A stretch of 64,000 nucleotides of DNA from Patescibacteria group bacterium. Lineage in GTDB: Bacteria; Patescibacteriota; Patescibacteriia; UBA10025; JAHIVO01. The stretch covers positions 1,008,048 to 1,072,047 of the forward strand of contig JBMOKY010000001.1 of the NCBI GenBank assembly GCA_049325535.1. The letters are read 5' to 3'. Shown here one piece after another: positions 4,784-61,949 of this stretch (the first letter of the stretch is position 1; each line of letters starts with the position of its first letter). The notes under the pieces are model-generated. The model was not told where the DNA came from and did no database searches. It was given only the letters and a program-made list of their open reading frames with translations. Made by a program: the position numbers and the translations under genes.

Positions 4784-6079
4784 TTAGGCTACTTCCAGCC
4801 GTCCGTCAAGAAATTCCTGATACCCACCCAAGTCAAGAAATCCATGGCCGCTGATATTAACCAGGATAGTTCTCGCCTCCCCTGATTCCCGGCAGACAAT
4901 CGCCTCATCAATAGCTGCTTTGATGGCGTGGGCTGACTCAGGCGCTGGCAATATCCCTTCCGTTTGCACAAACATTTGAGCCGCCTGCATCACTGCGGTT
5001 TGCTCAACCGCGCGGCGTTCGATGTACCCCTGATCCACTAAATGGCTGATCAATGGCGCGGCGCCGTGATACCGAAGCCCACCCGCCTGGATCCGTGGCG
5101 GAATGAAGTCTGCGCCAAGGGTGTACATCTTCAGTAGTGGCGTCATCTCCGCTGTATCACCGAAGTCATAGCGATACTCACCTTTTGTCAGGCTGGGGCA
5201 GGTTTCCGGTTCTACTGCCACTACCCGGATTGATTTTTTCCTGGTGATTCCTGAACCAATATAGGGCAAACTTATTCCGGCTAGATTACTACCTCCTCCA
5301 AAACAACCAAAAATGACATCTGGGTACGCATCGACTTTCCCCATTTGTGTCATCACCTCTTGGCCGATCACCGTCTGATGCATCAAGACGTGATTAAGCA
5401 CGCTCCCCAGCGAATACTTAGTATGTTCGTTCTTGATTGCCTCCATCGCTTCACTGATGGCGATGCCCAGGCTGCCGGGATGATTTGGGTCTTTCGCGAG
5501 ATACTGCCGGCCAATCGTGGTCTGTCGGCTCGGCGAAGCCAGTACCTCAGCGCCGAGCATTCGCATATAACTCACCCGATACGGTTTCTGCTGATAATGC
5601 AGCCGGACATAGTAGATGAGCGCCTCCATGCCGAATAGTTTTGCAGCTAAGGAGAGTGCCATACCCCACTGTCCCGCACCCGTCTCCGTCGTGAGGGTAG
5701 TGATACCTTCCTGTTTATTATAATACGCTTGGGCCAATGCGGTATTTAATTTGTGGCTGCCGGTCAATGATGCACCTTCGTACTTATAGAAAATACGTGC
5801 TGGCGTATTCAGTACCCGCTCCAAACGATCAGCGCGGTACAGCGGGGTTGGTCGATACCGCTGATACAAGGTGCGTACCTCATCTGGAATTTCGATCATC
5901 CGCTCGACGCTCGTCTCTTGTTCCACGAGCGCTTTTGGGAATAGCCCGAGCAATGCCGCGGGATCCAGCGGCTTATTCGTACCAGGATGCAAGGGCGGAG
6001 GCGGAGGCACCGGCAGGTCCGCTAGGATATTGTAGTAGTGCGTCGGCACCTCGCGTGCCGATAGAATTATTGGATTCAT
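4784..6079 (-). CDS. trpB: Tryptophan synthase beta-like PLP enzyme (TrpB2 type)
   Basis: 431 aa. Contains HKLNTALAQAYYNKQEGITTLTTETGAGQWG and GGGSNLAG, characteristic of TrpB / TrpB2. Confidence 0.85.
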   Translation of the reverse strand: MNPIILSAREVPTHYYNILADLPVPPPPPLHPGTNKPLDPAALLGLFPKALVEQETSVERMIEIPDEVRTLYQRYRPTPLYRADRLERVLNTPARIFYKYEGASLTGSHKLNTALAQAYYNKQEGITTLTTETGAGQWGMALSLAAKLFGMEALIYYVRLHYQQKPYRVSYMRMLGAEVLASPSRQTTIGRQYLAKDPNHPGSLGIAISEAMEAIKNEHTKYSLGSVLNHVLMHQTVIGQEVMTQMGKVDAYPDVIFGCFGGGSNLAGISLPYIGSGITRKKSIRVVAVEPETCPSLTKGEYRYDFGDTAEMTPLLKMYTLGADFIPPRIQAGGLRYHGAAPLISHLVDQGYIERRAVEQTAVMQAAQMFVQTEGILPAPESAHAIKAAIDEAIVCRESGEARTILVNISGHGFLDLGGYQEFLDGRLEVA

Positions 6080-6388
6080 AATGATTGATAATGACTGAGT
6101 GATTTAAAAAATACGAATACACCTGCAATCACGCCAGAAAAAAGTTGCCTTAGTTTTGAAGATAAATTTCATATATATCAATACATAACAAATAAAAAAT
6201 CGCCCTGTGCAGGAGTAGGATTTTTTTTCGAAAACAAAACCTACTTCGCTAGCGGCGACTAATTTTTTGCCAACAATTGTTTACTATCTGATGCATGACT
6301 GCATAATACATCGGATATTCCGTCCCTGTCAAATATGCCGCACCACAAACAAGCTACGTTTATCTCAATGACTGTGGATAACTTCACT

Positions 6389-6437
6389 TGACATTATCAA
6401 TACGCTGTTATAGTGTTTTAATACATTAAAACACTTC
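6389..6437 (+). promoter_or_regulatory. Candidate sigma70-like promoter (TTGACA ... TATAGT) followed by a perfect 10-bp-arm palindrome GTGTTTTAAT-ac-ATTAAAACAC (6414-6435), directly upstream of the TrpR-like gene
   Basis: TTGACA at 6389-6394, TATAGT at 6410-6415 (15-nt spacer). The palindrome is read directly from the sequence. It lies in the divergent region shared with trpB2. Confidence 0.4.
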
Positions 6438-6441
6438 GTTC

Positions 6442-6729
6442 ATGAAATCAACCCATATCGACCCACGCGCGCTCAATGACCTGTATCGCGCCATACTCCG
6501 ATTAAAAACGATTGATGAATGTAAACGATTTTTCCGGGACATCGCTACCCTCGAGGAACTCAAAGACCTTTCCGACCGCTGGGAAGTAGCTCGGCTCATC
6601 CACACCGGCGTCCCCTATCGTACTATTTCTCAGCACACCGGCGTCAGCACTGCAACTATCACACGAGTTGCGCACTGGATCAATCATGGCGAAGGTGGAT
6701 ACCAACTGATGCTCAAACGAATACACTAA
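6442..6729 (+). CDS. TrpR-like / YerC-YecD family DNA-binding protein
   Basis: 95 aa. ...LNDLYRAILRLKTIDECKRFFRDIATLEELKDLSDRWEVARLI...ISQHTGVSTATITRV matches the YerC/YecD Trp-repressor-related family. Confidence 0.8.
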   Translation: MKSTHIDPRALNDLYRAILRLKTIDECKRFFRDIATLEELKDLSDRWEVARLIHTGVPYRTISQHTGVSTATITRVAHWINHGEGGYQLMLKRIH

Positions 6730-6838
6730 CATACCTATGAATTATCGATCAAACAACCAATCTCATCACCAAAAGAATTCTTCTGTATTGAAGAGGCTTT
6801 TGTGATGTAGATTCATTAGTACCCTATGAATCGGTGAG

Positions 6839-6862
6839 CCTCCTCAGTACAGGAGGTTTTTT
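6839..6862 (+). terminator. Intrinsic terminator
   Basis: CCTCCT-cagtac-AGGAGG hairpin followed by TTTTTT. Confidence 0.55.
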
Positions 6863-6927
6863 CATATAAAAAATAAAGACCAAAAAAAACCTCACGCACC
6901 TTCACAATTTTATACAAGGAGAAAAAC

Positions 6928-7107
6928 ATGGAATCATTCATGACCTGCACACTCATGTCAGTGCAGACCATAGCCCAAGAGCTACAGCTGCCTGAAGATG
7001 TCATTACCCAACTCATCACTAAACTCACGGAGGTATCCAGCCAAAAATTCACGAACGATTCACTGTCCACGCCGTGTGCCAGCAATGGTTACGGCATGAT
7101 TCACTAA
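6928..7107 (+). CDS. Small hypothetical protein (59 aa), absent from the supplied ORF track (below the 60-aa cut-off)
   Basis: ATG at 6928 preceded by AAGGAG with a 7-nt spacer. Translates to MESFMTCTLMSVQTIAQELQLPEDVITQLITKLTEVSSQKFTNDSLSTPCASNGYGMIH with stop at 7105-7107. It lies immediately upstream of the 375-aa gene on the same strand. Confidence 0.45.
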   Translation: MESFMTCTLMSVQTIAQELQLPEDVITQLITKLTEVSSQKFTNDSLSTPCASNGYGMIH

Positions 7108-7152
7108 CCACACTAAACTCATCTTTTTGTCCAAAAGGAGATAACGACAATC

Positions 7153-53034: not shown

Positions 53035-55185
53035 TCAATCGGAGCGTCGCCGCTGCTGCCGCTCCCGGATCACATAGGCAGCGATGCCCGCGCCGATAGC
53101 TACCGCCGCTCCAATCAAATAATACACCACCGCTCGCTGTCCGGCCGGCGCTGGCACGACTACCGACGGCTGATCCGTACTGGCACCCAACACGTCTCCG
53201 GTCGATACGGCGATGGATGAGGGAATAGATATGTCGTCCTGAGTGCGGGGCAATAAACGCAAGCCGGCGCTCGTCTTATCCAATACCCCAGTGACGGTAA
53301 CCAGATCGCCCGGATTGAGTTCCGGTTGAACGATACCCGTCTTGGCCTGAATATATACGCGGAGGACATTGCCATCCTCATCCATCAAATAAATCCCCCG
53401 ACTATTTGCCCGATCCACGGTGCCGGTCACCTGCAGCAGCTGACCGATCATCTCGTCCGTCACCTCGCCAATGCCAACCTGGCGGAGTTCCAGTGATGCG
53501 GTGGAGACGTCAGTGCCCATGCCCTCCGCGTCCTCAGCGGGTGGCACTATTTCATTTTCCGCGCCCGGCGTCAGCACCTCGGTCCACTCCCACCGGCCAT
53601 CGGCAAACGCAAACGCATAGTCCTTTGGTGCCTTGGGAATGGTAACGCCGTGAATGATAGTGCCGGCTGGATCAACCAGATATAATTGTTCACCGGAATT
53701 GTTCAGGGTTATCTTGCTTTCCACCCGCTCAACCACCAGAAAAGCGCCAGCTGGGACCGTGCTATCATCACCAAATGTAAAATATCGCGATCCATCCGTC
53801 AGCTGCCACCCATCGAGCGATACGTCCCTGTCGCCGCTGTTATGCAGTTCAATAAACTCGCACACACTATCGCTCGGCATACAGCTGGGCAATACTTCGG
53901 AAATGATGATGGCATCGGAATAATCATAGTCCGAAACAATAATGTCCGTCCGTGTCATGTGTGTTGCGCCGTGCTCATCGGTCACCGTCAACGACACGCG
54001 AAACGCGCCAGCCCGTGTGTACGCATGGGTGGGCTTCTTTTCCGCTGACGTCTGGCCATCGCCAAAATCCCAGGCATAAATCAGTTCATCCGCATCACTA
54101 TCATTGCTTTCTCCACCATCGAAGGTGATATCATGGCGGACTTTTACTTCTGTGGCTGATGCCTGTATCACCGCTTCGGGAGGAGTATTGGAAATGATAT
54201 GTCGGTTTACTGCTCCGGGAGTCATTGCGTCAGTCCATTGCCATACATCCCCAATCAAACTATACGATTGCCCCTCATGAGAACCAGTATACGCTACACT
54301 CTCTACCTCGGTATTGTCCGGCCAGTACAATCGGACAGAGTCGGCGGTATTGTTGAGTGCAATGCCAGTGAGAGATTTAGGTAATACCAGATAGGATAGT
54401 GCCGCGATGGTTGGATTACTTATCGCATATCGCCGCGAACTATTGTCTCCAATTTTCCATCCAGTCAAATCGACTGCCACGGTACCGCGATTAAATAATT
54501 CGATGAATTCAGTGTCATCAGTACCCACCGGGTCCGGGAGAAATTCAGAAATGCATACGGTCGTGGCATATGCGATCGGTTCGTCATCAGCCGTCGCATC
54601 CGCCACAGGTACATATGAAGTATTATGGGGCTGGGGAACATCGAGGGTGGAAAAATCAGCGGCATTATTGTCAGTATCGATGCCGTCGGTACGCACAATA
54701 CTTTTATTGCTCCCCGGGTTCGCTGCCGGCGCTGATTCAGCGTGCGTAGCAGAACCAAACCCCACCAGATCGACAATACCGCCATCGGCATCAATCAACT
54801 CCACAGAGTTATTATCGGCCATCGAGTTGCCGCTCGAATAGGTAATATCAGGCTCGGCCGTGCCGAGATAACCAGTAGGATGCGTGATGAGAAAATAATG
54901 CCCTGGCGGAATAATCATGCCTGTAAATGAGTCAACCAGTACATACGCCGTACCACTGCTCGTCCGCTTCACCATTGACCATCCATCCAGAACAACATCG
55001 CTGCCGGTCGGATTATAGAGCTCGATAAATTCGTTGGTGCTCTGTCCACTCGATCCGCTCACCATTACTTGGTTAATAACTACATGGGTAGTTTCAGCTG
55101 CCATTAATCTGCTAGGCATTGCCAGAAATAATAAGAGAAATAAGGCGAGACGGGACTTGAAAGGTTGAAAGGATAAATAGTTCAT
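53035..55185 (-). CDS. Cell-surface protein with three lamin-tail (LTD) domains and a PKD domain, C-terminal TM anchor
   Basis: Signal peptide, then three LTD signatures (NEFIELYNPTGSDVVLDGW; TEFIELFNRGTVAVDLTGW; CEFIELHNSGDRDVSLDGW). A PKD-like block follows (WDFGDGQTSAEKKPTHAYTRAGAFRVSLTVTDEHG). The C-terminal TM is VVYYLIGAAVAIGAGIAAYVI followed by a basic tail. Confidence 0.7.
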   Translation of the reverse strand: MNYLSFQPFKSRLALFLLLFLAMPSRLMAAETTHVVINQVMVSGSSGQSTNEFIELYNPTGSDVVLDGWSMVKRTSSGTAYVLVDSFTGMIIPPGHYFLITHPTGYLGTAEPDITYSSGNSMADNNSVELIDADGGIVDLVGFGSATHAESAPAANPGSNKSIVRTDGIDTDNNAADFSTLDVPQPHNTSYVPVADATADDEPIAYATTVCISEFLPDPVGTDDTEFIELFNRGTVAVDLTGWKIGDNSSRRYAISNPTIAALSYLVLPKSLTGIALNNTADSVRLYWPDNTEVESVAYTGSHEGQSYSLIGDVWQWTDAMTPGAVNRHIISNTPPEAVIQASATEVKVRHDITFDGGESNDSDADELIYAWDFGDGQTSAEKKPTHAYTRAGAFRVSLTVTDEHGATHMTRTDIIVSDYDYSDAIIISEVLPSCMPSDSVCEFIELHNSGDRDVSLDGWQLTDGSRYFTFGDDSTVPAGAFLVVERVESKITLNNSGEQLYLVDPAGTIIHGVTIPKAPKDYAFAFADGRWEWTEVLTPGAENEIVPPAEDAEGMGTDVSTASLELRQVGIGEVTDEMIGQLLQVTGTVDRANSRGIYLMDEDGNVLRVYIQAKTGIVQPELNPGDLVTVTGVLDKTSAGLRLLPRTQDDISIPSSIAVSTGDVLGASTDQPSVVVPAPAGQRAVVYYLIGAAVAIGAGIAAYVIRERQQRRRSD

Positions 55186-55200
55186 ATGAGGACAAGAAAA

Positions 55201-55593
55201 CTATTCGTTTCTTTTTAATTCAAGGGAGTAGATTAAACGGTCAAATAAGTACATGGTTTTCATGGCGAGGGCATTAAAGGCGTCATATTCCTCTTCAGTT
55301 ATATACCCCTTTCGTAATAGCCGGCGTATGCGCTCATTTACCTCACCCAGAGAGCGCCGGCCATACCGAAGGAATCGAATGTAATCACCGATCGTACCGC
55401 TGTAGTACCCTTCCACAAAATTTGCACCTACACTATCCGAAGCGCTATCTATCTGACTCCGCATTTTGTATTCATTACGAGGGACGTGCTGTAAAATCTT
55501 TTGCACAGAAAAATCAAGTTGATCTATATTCTTCCATACTATCATCCGCTGGTGCCCCGCTATCCGTGTCCCCTGCTTCCCCTCTTCGGCCAT
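55201..55593 (-). CDS. Four-helix-bundle protein (23S rRNA intervening-sequence protein family)
   Basis: QIDSASDSVGANFVEGYY and the overall 130-aa helical layout match the IVS-protein / four-helix-bundle family. Confidence 0.65.
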   Translation of the reverse strand: MAEEGKQGTRIAGHQRMIVWKNIDQLDFSVQKILQHVPRNEYKMRSQIDSASDSVGANFVEGYYSGTIGDYIRFLRYGRRSLGEVNERIRRLLRKGYITEEEYDAFNALAMKTMYLFDRLIYSLELKRNE

Positions 55594-55687
55594 ATAAAAC
55601 CTATTGCCCTTAAATCATTATTCCCTTTCTTCCGGGTCGTACCGAGACCTTCCCCAAGAACGATACGACCCGGGAGAAAAGGAGTGA

Positions 55688-56113
55688 TTACTCCTTTTCC
55701 GAAACCGGAACTTTGTTAACGTCGATTTCCTCGACTACGATTTCATCGTTGACCTTATTGGTTTCCTCTTCCGATTTTTTCTTCGCACCGCCGAGCATCA
55801 CCAGATTTTCCATGATGATTTCCGTGCGGTAGTGTTTTTGCTGATCCTTTCCCTGCCAGTTGCGGGTGTGGATACGGCCATCCAGATAGATGCGGTCGCC
55901 CTTTTTCAGGTATTTGCCGACCACCTCGCCCAGCCGTCCCCAGGCCACCACCGGTAAAAATTCCGTGGACTCCTGACGCTGTTTCGATTTGGCATCGACC
56001 CAGCGATGGCTGGTGGCGACGCGGAACGACGCGACTGACTGGCCTGACGGCAATGACCGGATTTCCGGATCCACCGCCAGATTGCCTATTACCTGCGCTT
56101 TGTTGAGATTCAT
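55688..56113 (-). CDS. ssb: Single-stranded DNA-binding protein
   Basis: OB-fold N-terminus MNLNKAQVIGNLAVDPEIRSLPSGQSVASFRVA and an acidic C-terminal tip. Confidence 0.9.
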   Translation of the reverse strand: MNLNKAQVIGNLAVDPEIRSLPSGQSVASFRVATSHRWVDAKSKQRQESTEFLPVVAWGRLGEVVGKYLKKGDRIYLDGRIHTRNWQGKDQQKHYRTEIIMENLVMLGGAKKKSEEETNKVNDEIVVEEIDVNKVPVSEKE

Positions 56114-56363: not shown

Positions 56364-57176
56364 TTACTCATTTACTTCTAAAGAACGAACAATGGAGTTA
56401 AACATCTGCGCATCATGGGTATCAGCTTGGAATCCTTCAATTTGTCCCGCATTAATTTTACTCACGTATGCCTCAAACTCATCAGGTTGTATTTGCACTG
56501 AATAATTTTCCGCAGGAACATACCCAAATATGATTTGTTTGGCTGGATTGCTAATACTCTGTAGATAAACCTCCTGTACTATTTGGCCACTACCTTCAAC
56601 CCCATAATCCGGAACAAATTGGTAATATGAAAACCCACGAAACCCGTTCGGTGGATTTTCTAATATGCCGCACCCGCCATACTTATAATTAGTTATGGCC
56701 ACTAACCCCCCACAAAACTGACTTATGTCACCCTGGAATTGCGGCTCTTTCAATAATGAGAAAATGCGTTCCGTGGCACAGAATGACGTCTGTGTATCAT
56801 AGCTTATCCACAAGCCAAACGTCGATCCAGCGGGCACATCCACTACCCTGCACGCATTATCTATTTGATATTCTCCCTCACCACTATTATATGCGGCTAC
56901 TTGCGCCTCGGTCATCTGAAAATACGATGTTGGCAATTCTATACTAATGCCAACCTGAGGAAATAATAATGTTCCATACGTTGAATTCGGCTCAAACCTA
57001 ATAACATCACTCACAGTTTCCGCGGTATTGGTCACCGGTTGATTCGTGCTGATGGGGACATTTTTTTCATCGACCACCATAACATATATCACCCCAAATA
57101 TTAAGATCGTGATGGCTGTGCTGATAATTATTATATTTCTTTTCATACTCATTTTTTTAAATTGTGGGGTGGTCAT
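56364..57176 (-). CDS. Hypothetical secreted/membrane-anchored protein (270 aa), AT-rich island
   Basis: N-terminal hydrophobic anchor NIIIISTAITILIFGVIYVMVV. I recognise no family. Confidence 0.5.
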   Translation of the reverse strand: MTTPQFKKMSMKRNIIIISTAITILIFGVIYVMVVDEKNVPISTNQPVTNTAETVSDVIRFEPNSTYGTLLFPQVGISIELPTSYFQMTEAQVAAYNSGEGEYQIDNACRVVDVPAGSTFGLWISYDTQTSFCATERIFSLLKEPQFQGDISQFCGGLVAITNYKYGGCGILENPPNGFRGFSYYQFVPDYGVEGSGQIVQEVYLQSISNPAKQIIFGYVPAENYSVQIQPDEFEAYVSKINAGQIEGFQADTHDAQMFNSIVRSLEVNE

Positions 57177-57188
57177 ATATTCAGATAG

Positions 57189-57818
57189 TTATTTTATTTC
57201 GAGGGAGTTAAAAATTTCATCGCCCATCTTTTCCGCACTAATAAACCGATCTAAACTCGGGTCTTCATTCATTATGGTATTTCTAAAGCTGATAATATTT
57301 GTGCCCACCTGGATATAATAATTAATAGAGGAAAAAGCAAATACGTTTTGTTTATTCCAGACCCACTGGCGTATTACAGGATATTGACCCAGGGAATATT
57401 GCTCCTGTGTTTGAACGCTGTCACTATTAACTCGTTGTCTAGCCCACACTTCCATATTAGTATCCGCTGGTAATTCATCCTCTCGTATGGTAATAGTGCT
57501 TAACGGTGCCTGTATTATTTGACCACTTAGTTCGTCAGTGTATTGAATATCTTCATCAGATTTAATTTCAACATAATTATCCAATTCATCATTAAATTCA
57601 TTTAAGTCCCAGCTTTGGGGATACGAAACCGTGATGCCAAGCCGGTCTGAAATATGAACTCGCCAATCACTGGCAATGCTTTGATTTATATTGCCCTCGA
57701 CGTTCGCATTGCTTACGTTCCGTGAATTATTACTATTTATCAAAAACACCGCCACAATAATTGCTGCGGCAATGACTAATATGATTGTCAAATTTTTCCT
57801 GCTCATTTTTAATATCAT
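57189..57818 (-). CDS. Hypothetical secreted/membrane-anchored protein (209 aa), AT-rich island
   Basis: N-terminal anchor LTIILVIAAAIIVAVFLI. I recognise no family. Confidence 0.5.
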   Translation of the reverse strand: MILKMSRKNLTIILVIAAAIIVAVFLINSNNSRNVSNANVEGNINQSIASDWRVHISDRLGITVSYPQSWDLNEFNDELDNYVEIKSDEDIQYTDELSGQIIQAPLSTITIREDELPADTNMEVWARQRVNSDSVQTQEQYSLGQYPVIRQWVWNKQNVFAFSSINYYIQVGTNIISFRNTIMNEDPSLDRFISAEKMGDEIFNSLEIK

Positions 57819-57870
57819 ACTTGATTAAATCTGGGAGAGTTATGAAAATCCACAACTCTCCCGTCCGTCG

Positions 57871-58635
57871 TTATGGGCACCATGTGCGCCCGGTTGGCGA
57901 GGAAACTGGAATGTTCCAGGAGGAATACTGGTAGTTGACTACGATGCTTCTATATCCTGAAATGCCGGTCAGGGGCTGAGATACTCCGTTCTTGTAGATT
58001 ACGAAGTGGATATGCGGAAAAGCGGGGAGCCCGCGTTCCGGACCAGTCCAGCCAGTCGCACCAGCGTTTCCGATTATTGTCCCCTGCAGCAGATCGTCAC
58101 CTTCGTGCACGAAGTATTGTGGATCGCAGTTCAAATGGGCGACGACTGACTCCCATCCATTCCCATGATCCATTCTGACATACCAGCCAAGCGAACTACT
58201 CCATCGTGCATATTTAAAAATGCCCCTGGCGGGAGCAAGCACCCTACGGCCAGTAGTCGAACCATCCATCCGGACTAAATCAACAGCATGGTAATTGTTC
58301 CCCTGGTGGTATCCCACACCATATCCGCTGATTATTTTCCAGTACTCCGGGCCATAGAAATAATACGTACCAGCCCATGGCCACTTAAAATCGTACATAC
58401 TAGAAGGCCACGTTGCTGCTCCTGCCGCTGCAGTCACCGCTCCACGCCCCTTCCCGTCATCGACAGCGGTCGAATCAATGTCAGGGCCCGGCCCCTTGTT
58501 CAGGTCAGCAGGTTCGGTCGGTGTGGGGCTGTTGGTACAGCTGGTGATGAGAGCGGAAGATCCGATTGCCAGCGCAGTGAAGAGCACCAGCAGTGCGAAA
58601 AACTTCAGGTATTTCACGGGAAATACTCCTTTCAA
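57871..58635 (-). CDS. M23-family peptidoglycan peptidase, predicted lipoprotein
   Basis: Lipobox LITSC after the signal peptide. M23 metal-ligand motifs VRMDHGNGWESVVAHL (HxxxD) and PHIHFVIY (HxH). Confidence 0.75.
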   Translation of the reverse strand: MKGVFPVKYLKFFALLVLFTALAIGSSALITSCTNSPTPTEPADLNKGPGPDIDSTAVDDGKGRGAVTAAAGAATWPSSMYDFKWPWAGTYYFYGPEYWKIISGYGVGYHQGNNYHAVDLVRMDGSTTGRRVLAPARGIFKYARWSSSLGWYVRMDHGNGWESVVAHLNCDPQYFVHEGDDLLQGTIIGNAGATGWTGPERGLPAFPHIHFVIYKNGVSQPLTGISGYRSIVVNYQYSSWNIPVSSPTGRTWCP

Positions 58636-58797
58636 ACGATTTCAGATTGACTGTGTAACGTGAACATCCGTGTTTCATTTGTAATGAGCGCGTACCGTAC
58701 GGAGAGACCCACGGACTGTAAACTGTCTCCGTACGACCAGCCTCGCGGCTAGGCGGGTACGATCGAATTACGATTCATGGTCACCTCGCTTTCTACT

Positions 58798-59094
58798 CTA
58801 ATGAGCGGTTTGTGTGTTTTGGGTCATTGTTAACATTCGACACATATTTTTTTGAATATAATAAATCGTCAGCCCAACTACTCCATACCCCGTAACCACA
58901 AGAAAATAAGGCCATTGCTGCGTCCAGCGAGAAATGAGCATTACTGAAGTAATGACAAAATAGGCAGTAAACCAGATCCAGGACAGAATTGCATCACGTC
59001 GATCAACTATGTTTTTACGATGGACTAAATCAAGAAGAAAACCGAGGGGCGCCGCACCTCCCATGACCATTACATAACCAATTTCGTACGTCAT
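58798..59094 (-). CDS. Small 3-TM membrane protein (hypothetical)
   Basis: Three hydrophobic helices. Start taken at MTYEIGY; the longest ORF starts at 59124. Confidence 0.4.
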   Translation of the reverse strand: MTYEIGYVMVMGGAAPLGFLLDLVHRKNIVDRRDAILSWIWFTAYFVITSVMLISRWTQQWPYFLVVTGYGVVGLTIYYIQKNMCRMLTMTQNTQTAH

Positions 59095-59126
59095 ATGGTA
59101 AACCCTTTTATTACCCAATTTCAATA

Positions 59127-59447
59127 TTAATCATGACTTTCTCTGAAAGAAGGAGCTAATCTCGTCACTCGAACAATTAATGTCGGAAAGTAACAAATAA
59201 CAAAACTTTCAATAATCACAAATATGGGCAGTGATATATAGCTAATCGGGCTCTCGGACACCCTGACCAGCAATTCTGTCAATGTGGTTGCTGGCAAAAA
59301 AATAGCATAAGTCACCTCACCGATACTGCGAAAAAATGGCCCCAGGTCAAAAAACGAAAAAACTGCAAAAACAATACATATAATTACCGTGCCAATATAA
59401 GTATAGCGAGAGGGTTCGATTTGTAACTGTGATTTTATGGTTTCCAT
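59127..59447 (-). CDS. Small 3-TM membrane protein (hypothetical)
   Basis: Three hydrophobic helices, similar in size and architecture to the adjacent small membrane protein. Confidence 0.4.
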   Translation of the reverse strand: METIKSQLQIEPSRYTYIGTVIICIVFAVFSFFDLGPFFRSIGEVTYAIFLPATTLTELLVRVSESPISYISLPIFVIIESFVICYFPTLIVRVTRLAPSFRESHD

Positions 59448-59566
59448 ATATTAATATCTAGAGTCTGCACATAATTATTAGTAGGGTAGAGAAGCAAGTC
59501 TTCCTCTACCCTACTTCTACCAACGATTGTATGAACGGAGCGCTACTTGCGGCTTAATCGCCCACA

Positions 59567-60289
59567 CTAGTAAGCCGTCATCATGACCGAGGCCGATTTG
59601 TCATTGTTCTGCACAACGACGAAGAGATAGGCAATATCTGCACTCCCGCTGTATAGCGTCTTATACGTATACCACGGAGCGCACCACCAGGCGGTCCACT
59701 GGTTCCACCCGGAGCTGGTATTCCGCCACGACGGGAGCATGAGGACCTCATAGTTCCAGACAATATTATTCTTGAACTTCAGGGTCTTATACCCGGCTTT
59801 GCGCGGATTGTAGTACACCCAGGCCTGATCACTGCTTTCCATGATGACAGCGTATACCCACTCATTATCCTTCAGATAATAATTGGTGATGTCGGCACCG
59901 AGAGCAGTGGCCGCCGGAATCATTTGCCGGATGTTTTCCTTATCCTCTGGTGAGATGGTGCCGGTATTGCCGAGGTCGATTACCGGATGGATCAGCGTAT
60001 ACTCGGTGCCATCGGGGAGGATAATCGTCCGTATCACGCCTTCATCAGCTGCACTACAGCTGGCCGACTTCGACAGATTGTCGACATTGATCGTATCGGA
60101 CGCTCCGATTACTTGGGAAAAATCATTCGGGAAATGCAGGTTGCCATGGTTCACCAGATCGGCGGCATGCACTGTCATTTCGGGATGAACGGCAATACTG
60201 TGCACTGTATCACCAGTCTGCGAACAGCCGGCGATGACTATGATCATGACCACCAGGGCCGGGATCATGATTTTCTTCCAATACAACAT
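59567..60289 (-). CDS. Hypothetical lipoprotein (240 aa)
   Basis: Signal peptide + lipobox VIAGC. AAGAGGTAG sits upstream of the ATG. I recognise no family. Confidence 0.55.
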   Translation of the reverse strand: MLYWKKIMIPALVVMIIVIAGCSQTGDTVHSIAVHPEMTVHAADLVNHGNLHFPNDFSQVIGASDTINVDNLSKSASCSAADEGVIRTIILPDGTEYTLIHPVIDLGNTGTISPEDKENIRQMIPAATALGADITNYYLKDNEWVYAVIMESSDQAWVYYNPRKAGYKTLKFKNNIVWNYEVLMLPSWRNTSSGWNQWTAWWCAPWYTYKTLYSGSADIAYLFVVVQNNDKSASVMMTAY

Positions 60290-60632
60290 GATAACTACCT
60301 CTTGTAGCGTATCAACAATACCCGCGAGTGCTTGATTTCAAAAAACGAGAATAAGAAGAGACCCACGTTATCTTCCTAACCGTATCCGGTCGTTTCTGAC
60401 CTCCTTTCTCACTTATAAAAGTGCAGTGTTGATGATGCGAAATGTGATTACCCACAATTCTTCGCGACGGCCTTTTTCAGAGACGGCGTCTGCGGTTCAT
60501 GCGAGAACCATTCATTCGTACGGCTCAAACAGTAACTTTAGAAAAATTTTTTCTTTTTCCGCCGTCACTTTTTTTTGATCTCAATGTTCGTTTCTACTGT
60601 AATTATAGCAAAAAAATAAGCGCTGCAAAATT

Positions 60633-61697: not shown

Positions 61698-61862
61698 GAG
61701 ATACCTCCTCGGGGTTTGACCTCGTTATTTCTATATCAATGAACCGATATGATTTTTCTGGGAAAAACAAAGAGTTTTCCATCTTACCGTCACCCCGCAC
61801 CGATTGTCAAACTGCTTGCACATTTGCTGTGGGTCACTATAATGGGTAGAATTACACCTGTG

Positions 61863-61949
61863 CTGGAGTGGCGGAATTGGCATACGCGCTAGCCTTAGGA
61901 GCTAGTGCCCGCAAGGGCTTGAGAGTTCAAATCTCTCCTCCAGCACCAA
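61863..61949 (+). tRNA. tRNA-Leu (anticodon TAG), type II with long variable arm, CCA encoded
   Basis: GCTGGAG...CTCCAGC acceptor stem, anticodon stem-loop CTAGC-CTTAGGA-GCTAG, variable arm TGCCCGCAAGGGC, T-arm GAGAG-TTCAAAT-CTCTC, 3' ACCA. Confidence 0.9.

Follow-up and report, generated by a model that had tools for sequence, protein, structure and literature searches.

In bacteriocin and lantibiotic operons, an attenuating hairpin follows the structural gene and the immunity genes lie downstream of it. For Candidate Phyla Radiation (CPR) bacteria, secreted peptidoglycan hydrolases and DD-endopeptidases have been proposed to degrade the wall of the prey, in a Vampirococcus paper that also cites a self-protection protein of Bdellovibrio (PMC8080830). 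Among type VI secretion system (T6SS) pairs, the structure paper on Tse3-Tsi3 names Mog1 and PsbP among the structural neighbors of Tsi3 (PMC3792639). Here, we describe six open reading frames (ORFs), designated g240, TM106, TM98, M23, g209, and g270, at positions 56364-60289 of a 64,000-nucleotide stretch of DNA (hereafter "the window") from a Patescibacteria group bacterium (GenBank assembly GCA_049325535.1, contig JBMOKY010000001.1, positions 1,008,048 to 1,072,047). We conclude that the locus is a fixed, vertically inherited chromosomal envelope cluster, and that it is neither a phage lysis cassette nor a recent import. Our preferred reading, to which we assign a probability of roughly 55%, is that of a membrane-tethered endopeptidase with a fast-evolving controlling or protecting partner, plus a second pair, in which a lipoprotein is joined by a small membrane protein.

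All six ORFs lie on the minus strand, which agrees with the original prediction of six co-oriented genes for envelope proteins. The general description of their products held up as well: the 240-aa protein and the M23 peptidase each carry a lipobox, there are two multi-helix membrane proteins of ~100 aa, and two further proteins each have one N-terminal hydrophobic anchor. The tRNA-Leu gene that had been placed beyond the edge of the block was also found, and the guess of an episymbiotic lineage fits the source, which belongs to the Patescibacteria group (CPR). The features are as follows; related loci and contigs are referred to below by L-numbers.

60602-60629, minus strand: candidate promoter-like site (TTTGCA-16-TATAAT plus an extended TG), from a consensus scan only, with 10 of 12 matches
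59567-60289, minus strand: g240, a predicted 240-aa lipoprotein (lipobox IAGC, residues 19-22)
59481-59514, minus strand: GC-rich hairpin between g240 and TM106, read from the sequence (GTAGGGTAGAGAAG...CTTCTCTACCCTAC)
59127-59447, minus strand: TM106, a 106-aa membrane protein with two to three hydrophobic helices
58798-59094 (ORF to 59124), minus strand: TM98, a 98-aa membrane protein with three helices
58696-58735, minus strand: hairpin in the 180-nt spacer between TM98 and M23 (CGTACGGAGAC...GTCTCTCCGTACG)
57871-58617, minus strand: M23, a predicted 248-aa zinc metallopeptidase lipoprotein (GTG start; lipobox ITSC, residues 24-27; PF01551)
57833-57862, minus strand: GC-rich hairpin between M23 and g209 (GGGAGAGTTGTGG...CATAACTCTCCC)
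57189-57818, minus strand: g209, a predicted 209-aa N-anchored extracytoplasmic protein (single N-terminal hydrophobic anchor, without a lipobox)
56364-57176, minus strand: g270, a predicted 270-aa N-anchored secreted protein (single N-terminal anchor, without a lipobox; four Cys)
61862-61948: tRNA-Leu(tag), anticodon UAG

The M23 protein matches Pfam family PF01551 with 55.2 bits (cut-off 28.7; E-value 8.1e-15), and a profile of 20 M23 relatives matches 39 solved M23 chains, the sequence alignment extending only from residue ~111 onward. An AlphaFold2 model built from a 20-sequence alignment (mean predicted local distance difference test score (pLDDT) of 82, with most of the domain >90) shows residues 28-63 as a disordered linker and places the catalytic domain between ~70 and 248. 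As modeled, this domain has the M23 beta-sheet fold, and a Foldseek search with it returned ShyA, EnpA, Csd1/2, EnvC, LytM, and lysostaphin (E ~1e-7, probability 1.00). Six residues (H104, D113, H151, H161, H202, and H204) are invariant in 20/20 family members; the HxH motif (H202-I-H204) and the additional catalytic histidine (H161) are both present. The other fully shown M23 loci have a cysteine at residue ~15-36. Judged by its sequence, M23 is most likely a Sec substrate that becomes lipid-anchored to the membrane's outer face, where it would act as a zinc endopeptidase that cuts the peptide cross-links of peptidoglycan. The maturation of lipoproteins depends on Lgt and Lsp. The subfamily appears to be small, as only 20 word-indexed relatives were found in 5.8 billion clusters, and the named ones are labeled Patescibacteria. 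Two contigs labeled uncultured Gammaproteobacteria, L024 (CAYINT010000069.1) and L027 (CAYJKP010000001.1), also carry a full-length, Patescibacteria-type M23, and their labels may be wrong; L027, a 668-kb contig, has a typical AT-rich partner gene as well.

The gene downstream of M23 encodes g209, which matches the Pfam family PsbP_2 (PF18933) with 19.2 bits (E 1.3e-3), a score under the cut-off of 27. A partner protein that is related to it by BLAST (L029:3447-4169) matches the same family with 50.9 bits (2.5e-13); of the 15 aligned partners, 6 in all match it. The best AlphaFold2 model of g209, from a two-sequence alignment, has a mean pLDDT of 73, with the domain at ~80-90. On this modeling, g209 has a fold of the PsbP/Mog1/DcrB type, an alpha-beta-alpha sandwich. 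Its gene lies downstream of M23 as a conserved partner. The last gene of the block, g270, gave no Pfam or PDB match. Paralogy tests found no significant similarity between g209 and g270, or between TM106 and TM98, and a comparison of g240 with the partner profile returned nothing.

The conserved pairing extends to related loci. In every case in which an M23-family gene lies upstream of another gene (12/12: the window, two in L007, and one each in L008-L010, L023, L025, and L027-L030), it is followed on the same strand, after 49-104 nt, by a gene for an N-anchored or lipobox protein, and L058 provides a thirteenth case with a 68-nt gap. The two members of the pair evolve at different rates: M23 proteins have a median identity of 43.5%, as against 22.9% for the partner, which is the less conserved protein in 54 of 55 locus pairs. 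All three type-A M23 genes have partners of the g209 type. The layout also recurs behind other secreted proteins. C39-like peptidases have it in L058 (a Peptidase_C39_2 match) and at L028:9326-10075 (21.2 bits, below the Pfam cut-off of 24), and behind a family of lipoproteins with the motif WTYWWGRRCCYWG come small membrane proteins of two or three helices. We had also read L023:6435-7214, by eye, as a CHAP/NlpC-like peptidase; neither Pfam nor PDB searches supported that reading and it was dropped. When 24 pairs of a secreted-protein gene and its partner were gathered from 13 loci, the first gene had the higher GC content in 24/24, with a mean difference of 0.144 (0.216 for GC content at third codon positions, GC3); since the pairs were collected post hoc from related genomes, these figures describe the pattern and are no independent test of it.

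The upstream half of the block shows a second such association. The C-terminal ~90 residues of g240 are W/Y-rich and weakly similar to PKD-type repeats. The protein had no Pfam, PDB, or PHROG match, and an exhaustive phmmer search of 1.84 billion representatives found a single full-length relative (P0022, 44% identity); its other matches were two small secreted proteins that share the region at the C terminus and, weakly and through repeats, giant PKD-domain proteins. Directly downstream of the gene for P0022 lies a homolog of TM106 (L055:5611-5937; 108 aa, 39% identity, E 7.6e-19). L055 is a groundwater contig whose context otherwise differs from that of the window, with no lysin near the g240 and TM106 homologs. 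Judged from these sequences, TM106 is the conserved partner of g240. The NCBI annotation lists g240 as a hypothetical protein and TM106 as hypothetical protein ACOYUK_05445.

Hairpins separate the first genes from their partners. Of the spacers folded in the window and its relatives, 23/25 form a strong hairpin, its arms rich in G and in C, immediately past the stop codon of the first gene, with z-scores below -2; the baseline is 21 of 52 window genes with a comparable downstream hairpin. The hairpin between M23 and g209 starts 8 nt after the M23 stop codon and ends 14 nt before the g209 ATG (minimum free energy (MFE) -21.1 kcal/mol, z -4.6), and the g240-TM106 intergenic fold has an MFE of -38.3 kcal/mol (z -3.4). 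The TM98-M23 spacer is overall not unusually structured (z -1.36), and an Rfam scan, in which the tRNA was the sole match, gave none for this spacer. The 14 nt between the hairpin and the start of g209 are too few to hold a promoter, so that g209 probably depends on read-through from M23 for its expression. The candidate promoter-like site falls in the 400-bp AT-rich spacer upstream of g240.

These hairpins bear on the possibility that there is no coupling at all, and that M23 is an ordinary growth or division autolysin, with the AT-rich genes being unrelated, fast-evolving surface ORFans that are separately transcribed and build up in permissive spacers downstream of terminators. The hairpins that part the two kinds of gene are indeed terminator-like, most partners have no annotated family, the identity of the partner is untied to that of M23 in several pairs, and the balance of non-synonymous and synonymous changes in g270 (12:11) is relaxed. 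We nevertheless think this explanation unlikely, given that the M23-family adjacency is seen in every case and across narrow gaps, that the same layout occurs behind other secreted proteins, that g209 lacks space for a promoter of its own, that g240 and TM106 stayed paired while their context changed, and that g209-type partners accompany all three type-A M23 genes.

We favor two modules built to one layout, in which a normal-GC gene for a secreted lipoprotein is followed by a GC-rich hairpin after its stop codon and then by one or two AT-rich genes for membrane-bound proteins. In module 2 (M23, g209, and g270), the lipid-anchored M23 would cut peptidoglycan cross-links at the outer face of the membrane. 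The g209 protein, anchored on the same membrane face, most likely binds M23 so as to restrain, position, or neutralize it, either for self-protection or for regulation; we infer this from the conserved adjacency, the fold, and the evolutionary rate. The g270 protein may be a further member of g209's kind. Module 1 (g240, TM106, and probably TM98) is a conserved pairing apart from this one, in which a lipoprotein goes with a small polytopic membrane protein, and it may be analogous, with its own secreted protein and membrane partner. In both modules, the hairpins would allow the first gene to be expressed strongly while read-through to the partners is attenuated.

Several observations weigh against this reading. 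The canonical HxxxD zinc motif is absent from M23, in which the invariant H104 lies nine residues before D113 (H-x8-D); the residue four before D113 is a tyrosine, and H110, which would give an HxxD spacing, is found in only about half of the members. Similar M23 proteins can have unrelated partners (76% versus 27% identity for L027/L028, and 69% versus 20% for L025/L029), and such replacement of the partner beside closely related M23 proteins is awkward for a strictly cognate inhibitor. The g270 protein aligns with the partner profile only over the anchor, the linker, and the first-strand motif (hhalign probability 81%), and no homolog of TM98 was found outside the species. The 24 pairs, which are phylogenetically related, were hand-picked once the pattern was known, and their statistics overstate independence. 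Lastly, the hairpin could be a full terminator, in which case the partner genes would be separate transcription units and their adjacency non-functional.

The relatives also contain arrays of such pairs. The most extensive is at L058:2928-12771 (GCA_043802545.1), beside ssb, where secreted and membrane proteins alternate four times in a row in the order C39_2 peptidase, 180-aa protein, M23, second M23, 214-aa protein, lipoprotein, 98-aa three-helix protein, third M23, and 369-aa protein; GC is 0.46-0.54 in the genes for secreted proteins and 0.32-0.38 in those for membrane proteins. L007 has two tandem M23-partner pairs, and L029 has two M23 genes together with a pair of a lipoprotein and a two-helix protein. 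Overall, the clusters lie beside ssb in 6 of the 13 loci examined. A gene for an rve-family transposase is found ~1.4 kb upstream of ssb in L058.

Arrays of secreted peptidases, each with its own anchored protein, suggest a third explanation, in which the locus would be the local part of a larger effector-immunity arsenal; M23 and g240 would be weapons directed at the wall or membrane of a host or competitor, and the AT-rich proteins would provide cognate immunity. Small polytopic membrane proteins beside secreted toxins are a common immunity layout. The Patescibacteria lineage, the conserved adjacency and co-orientation of enzyme and partner, and the fast evolution and replacement of the partners would all fit. 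The fold of g209 is common to the T6SS immunity proteins Tsi3 and TplEi, but it is also that of the non-immunity envelope proteins LpqN, DcrB, and MTC28. Moreover, M23 is lipid-anchored and its release is not obvious, and no secretion or delivery system lies beside the cluster; by the annotations seen, there is no dedicated delivery route in the 64-kb window, although no search aimed at one was made. Conserved synteny across genera and very low polymorphism look more like housekeeping than like a locus in an arms race. We hold this explanation only tentatively, as less probable than a controlled, tethered endopeptidase. It would imply, with the same reserve, a Patescibacteria clade with a cluster of Sec-exported effector-immunity pairs, attenuated by hairpins and independent of T6SS and the type VII secretion system (T7SS), which would serve to breach the host envelope under self-protection. 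A lipoprotein hydrolase or toxin (M23, C39-like, the g240 family, or the WTYWWGRRCCYWG family) might then be paired with PsbP-fold immunity in the case of peptidases, and with small polytopic proteins in the case of other lipoproteins. Were this true, alternating GC content and hairpins would make a recognizable genomic signature.

Signaling genes were often seen near the pairs in relatives. They encode a multi-pass GAF/HisKA sensor kinase of ~930 aa (46% identity between L055 and L023), an acyltransferase that resembles FeeM and autoinducer synthases (26% identity between L055 and L029, E 8e-31), and, in L010, a HisKA_7TM kinase. These kinase and acyltransferase loci are at L055:422-4558, L023:2659-5454, L029:6125-6898, and L010:12095-13522. 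The genes might regulate the clusters; neither the sensor kinase nor the acyltransferase has a homolog in the window.

The original prediction had also reported a sharp drop in GC content from 56.3 to 60.6 kb. Four of the genes are strongly AT-rich; the drop, however, is not continuous, and g240 and M23 are normal. In 500-bp segments, GC is low in two patches, at 56.25-58.0 kb (0.37-0.43, including the window minimum of 0.374 at 57.0 kb) and at 58.75-59.5 kb (0.38-0.39). Normal-GC DNA (0.50-0.54 at 58.0-58.75 kb) lies between them, and values of 0.50-0.52 are found at 59.5-60.25 kb. By gene, GC/GC3 is native-like in g240 (0.516/0.668) and M23 (0.533/0.557), while TM106 (0.377/0.346), TM98 (0.404/0.394), g209 (0.370/0.362), and g270 (0.410/0.395) have the four lowest GC3 values of the 52 ORFs in the window (mean 0.581, standard deviation 0.08; next lowest 0.489). 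The boundary between GC-normal and AT-rich sequence coincides with the hairpins at 59481-59514 and 57833-57862. The compositional anomaly is thus real and beyond chance, and it is a property of single genes, not of one island. The partner's GC3 is offset from that of M23 by ~0.2 in the window (from a genome of ~52% GC) as well as in L007 (~38% GC), with each gene tracking the GC content of its own genome, which points to long co-residence under gene-specific regimes rather than to import. The AT-richness of the partner genes would then be long-standing, and may reflect fast, weakly constrained evolution that drifts toward AT; a recent import fits these data poorly. The second-lowest-GC patch of the window (0.40-0.45, at 6000-7150) is mostly non-coding and contains one 95-aa ORF (6442-6729) that looks TrpR/YerC-like by eye only; nothing ties this patch to the cluster.

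The original prediction had likened the block, described as an AT-rich island, to a phage-derived lysis module; the alternative that it offered, a cell-wall-attack set, may hold. In its fullest form the first idea would be a lysis cassette of phage origin, or a genomic island acquired recently, beside tRNA-Leu, with TM106 and TM98 as holins and M23 as the endolysin. We consider this highly improbable, and it is largely refuted by the evidence. Two membrane proteins of ~100 aa and about three helices are indeed encoded upstream of a peptidoglycan peptidase, as would be expected of holins; however, no family in Pfam, PHROG, NCBIfam, or PADLOC, of holins or otherwise, matched TM106 or TM98 (with Pfam, PHROG, and NCBIfam holin families searched at E up to 0.1), and tblastn found no match to either among 50,697 phage records (E up to 1). 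PADLOC likewise gave no defense-system match. The M23 protein does weakly match PHROG endolysin families (1.7e-7), but its matches in the phage records are at the level of the domain only (≤36% identity over ≤54% of the query), and no member of the subfamily turned up in a pattern scan of IMG/VR. As M23 has a lipoprotein signal of its own, no holin would be needed for its export. TM106, for its part, belongs with g240 and not with the peptidase, since its neighbor elsewhere is a g240 homolog with no lysin nearby; the syntenic relatives L026 and L025 have no genes for small membrane proteins upstream of M23.

The chromosomal context speaks in the same direction. Four genes with strongly atypical GC3 and a tRNA gene 1.2-1.6 kb away might suggest an island, but the other two genes are native in composition, and the features of an island were wanting: no variable presence, integrase, or direct repeats. 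The flanks consist of core genes, with purD, pyrC, tRNA-Leu, and prs on one side and ssb, a gene for an LTD/PKD protein, a Metallophos gene, and polA on the other. No phage gene, structural or otherwise, and no integrase was found in them, and the only att-like repeats were short ones of the kind expected by chance. Furthermore, prs separates the tRNA from the block, and the tRNA-Leu flank is conserved in relatives. In L009/L026, whose M23 is 42% identical to that of the window, the gene order mirrors that of the window: purD, tRNA-Leu(tag), prs, two unrelated genes, M23, a 202-aa anchored protein, ssb, LTD/PKD, and Metallophos. In L025, the order is tRNA-Leu(tag), a 184-aa pilin-like gene, M23, three anchored proteins, ssb, and an LTD protein. 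This synteny indicates that M23 and the downstream anchored protein are old residents of the interval between tRNA-Leu and ssb, and, judged from gene order, the tRNA-Leu gene is a conserved neighbor and not an integration scar. A contig scan with prs as the single-protein query gave no confirmed relative.

Within the species, the block is present in contigs of at least nine other samples (sequencing runs) with invariant gene content. Together with the synteny of M23 and its partner in two distant relatives, this fixation contradicts the idea of an acquired or strain-variable island. Identity among samples is 99.5-99.75% for g240/TM106/TM98 and 99.1-99.9% for M23/g209/g270. In eight to nine contigs, g209 has 0 variable sites and M23 has 4, and among strains TM98, which is called as a gene in Logan assemblies, differs by a single amino-acid change and an in-frame deletion of 9 nt. 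Polymorphism within the block is highest in g270, with 23 variable sites (11 synonymous and 12 non-synonymous), nearly all of them in one haplotype from two samples (L015/L019). Of the differences in this haplotype, 21 lie within 56451-57087, 8 of them in 56535-56564; g209 and the g270-ssb spacer, which flank it, are invariant in 9/9 contigs. The pattern is reminiscent of a short tract of recombination, or of diversification confined to this spot.

Two further observations concern the assemblies and the neighboring DNA. At least eight independent assemblies break within 58516-58801, a stretch that takes in the TM98-M23 spacer, its hairpin included, and the part of M23 that encodes the signal peptide and the linker; break points are at 58772 (twice), 58801, 58552, 58537, 58523, and 58516, and the sequence that is covered is nearly identical. 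Population heterogeneity, a drop in coverage, and secondary structure are candidate causes. Beyond ssb, the window has a strain-specific segment of 531 bp (55085-55615), where eight contigs of the same species have ~78 bp that code for another signal peptide. The segment holds a PF05635 gene ("23S rRNA intervening sequence"/four-helix bundle; 55201-55593, Pfam 4.6e-18), supplies a different signal-peptide-coding 5′ end to the gene for the LTD/PKD surface protein, and abuts, at one boundary (55616), the ssb terminator hairpin (55617-55688). The LTD/PKD gene has 15 synonymous and 10 non-synonymous changes among strains. The idea of a diversity-generating retroelement at the PF05635 gene was dropped, as no reverse transcriptase or adenine-specific variation was seen, although no search was aimed at them.

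What these results remove is a false lead, in that the locus contains no prophage remnant or lysis cassette and its AT-richness is no mark of horizontal transfer. What they provide is a pattern that recurs in an uncultured, host-dependent lineage: a normal-GC gene for a secreted wall enzyme, a hairpin, and a fast-evolving, AT-rich gene for a membrane partner. If the partners are inhibitors or immunity proteins, the pattern would be a genomic signature for CPR surface hydrolases that act on the cell's own wall or on that of the host, and the partners would form a new family of PsbP-fold proteins for M23 peptidases. If they are not, the locus would be an ordinary autolysin neighborhood.

The described systems resemble the cluster in different respects. 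Phage holin-endolysin cassettes likewise encode small membrane proteins of about three helices upstream of a peptidoglycan hydrolase; here, however, there is no phage context or holin family, the lysin would be self-exported, and the partner of the membrane protein is g240. Bacteriocin and lantibiotic operons share the gene for a secreted product, the intercistronic GC-rich hairpin, and small genes of the membrane or immunity type that are presumably expressed at a lower level, but the products here are lipoproteins and enzymes of 170-430 aa instead of peptides, and transporter and modification genes are absent. The T6SS pairs Tse3-Tsi3 and TplE-TplEi differ in that, by the annotations seen in the window, the present locus has no T6SS or other delivery apparatus, and in that it has a predicted Sec/lipoprotein enzyme and a partner anchored by a transmembrane helix; in addition, g209 has no sequence similarity to Tsi3. 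With the LytM/lysostaphin-type endopeptidases (ShyA, Csd1-3/Pgp3, LytM, and EnpA), the window protein shares PF01551, the modeled fold, the HxH motif, the catalytic histidine, the aspartate of the first motif, and a predicted extracytoplasmic location. It differs from them in belonging to a small subfamily found only in Patescibacteria-type contigs, in being lipid-anchored without a LysM, SH3b, or coiled-coil accessory domain, and in having H-x8-D in place of HxxxD as well as a conserved C-terminal PPxGRTxCP tail. In the case of the Bdellovibrio DD-endopeptidases and Bd3460, a predator or epibiont secretes an endopeptidase and encodes, in an adjacent gene, a protein that shields its own wall (PMC8080830). 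A predatory use of the present locus is hypothetical, and the components differ, with a PBP4-type enzyme and an ankyrin protector in Bdellovibrio, and an M23 enzyme and a PsbP-like protein here.

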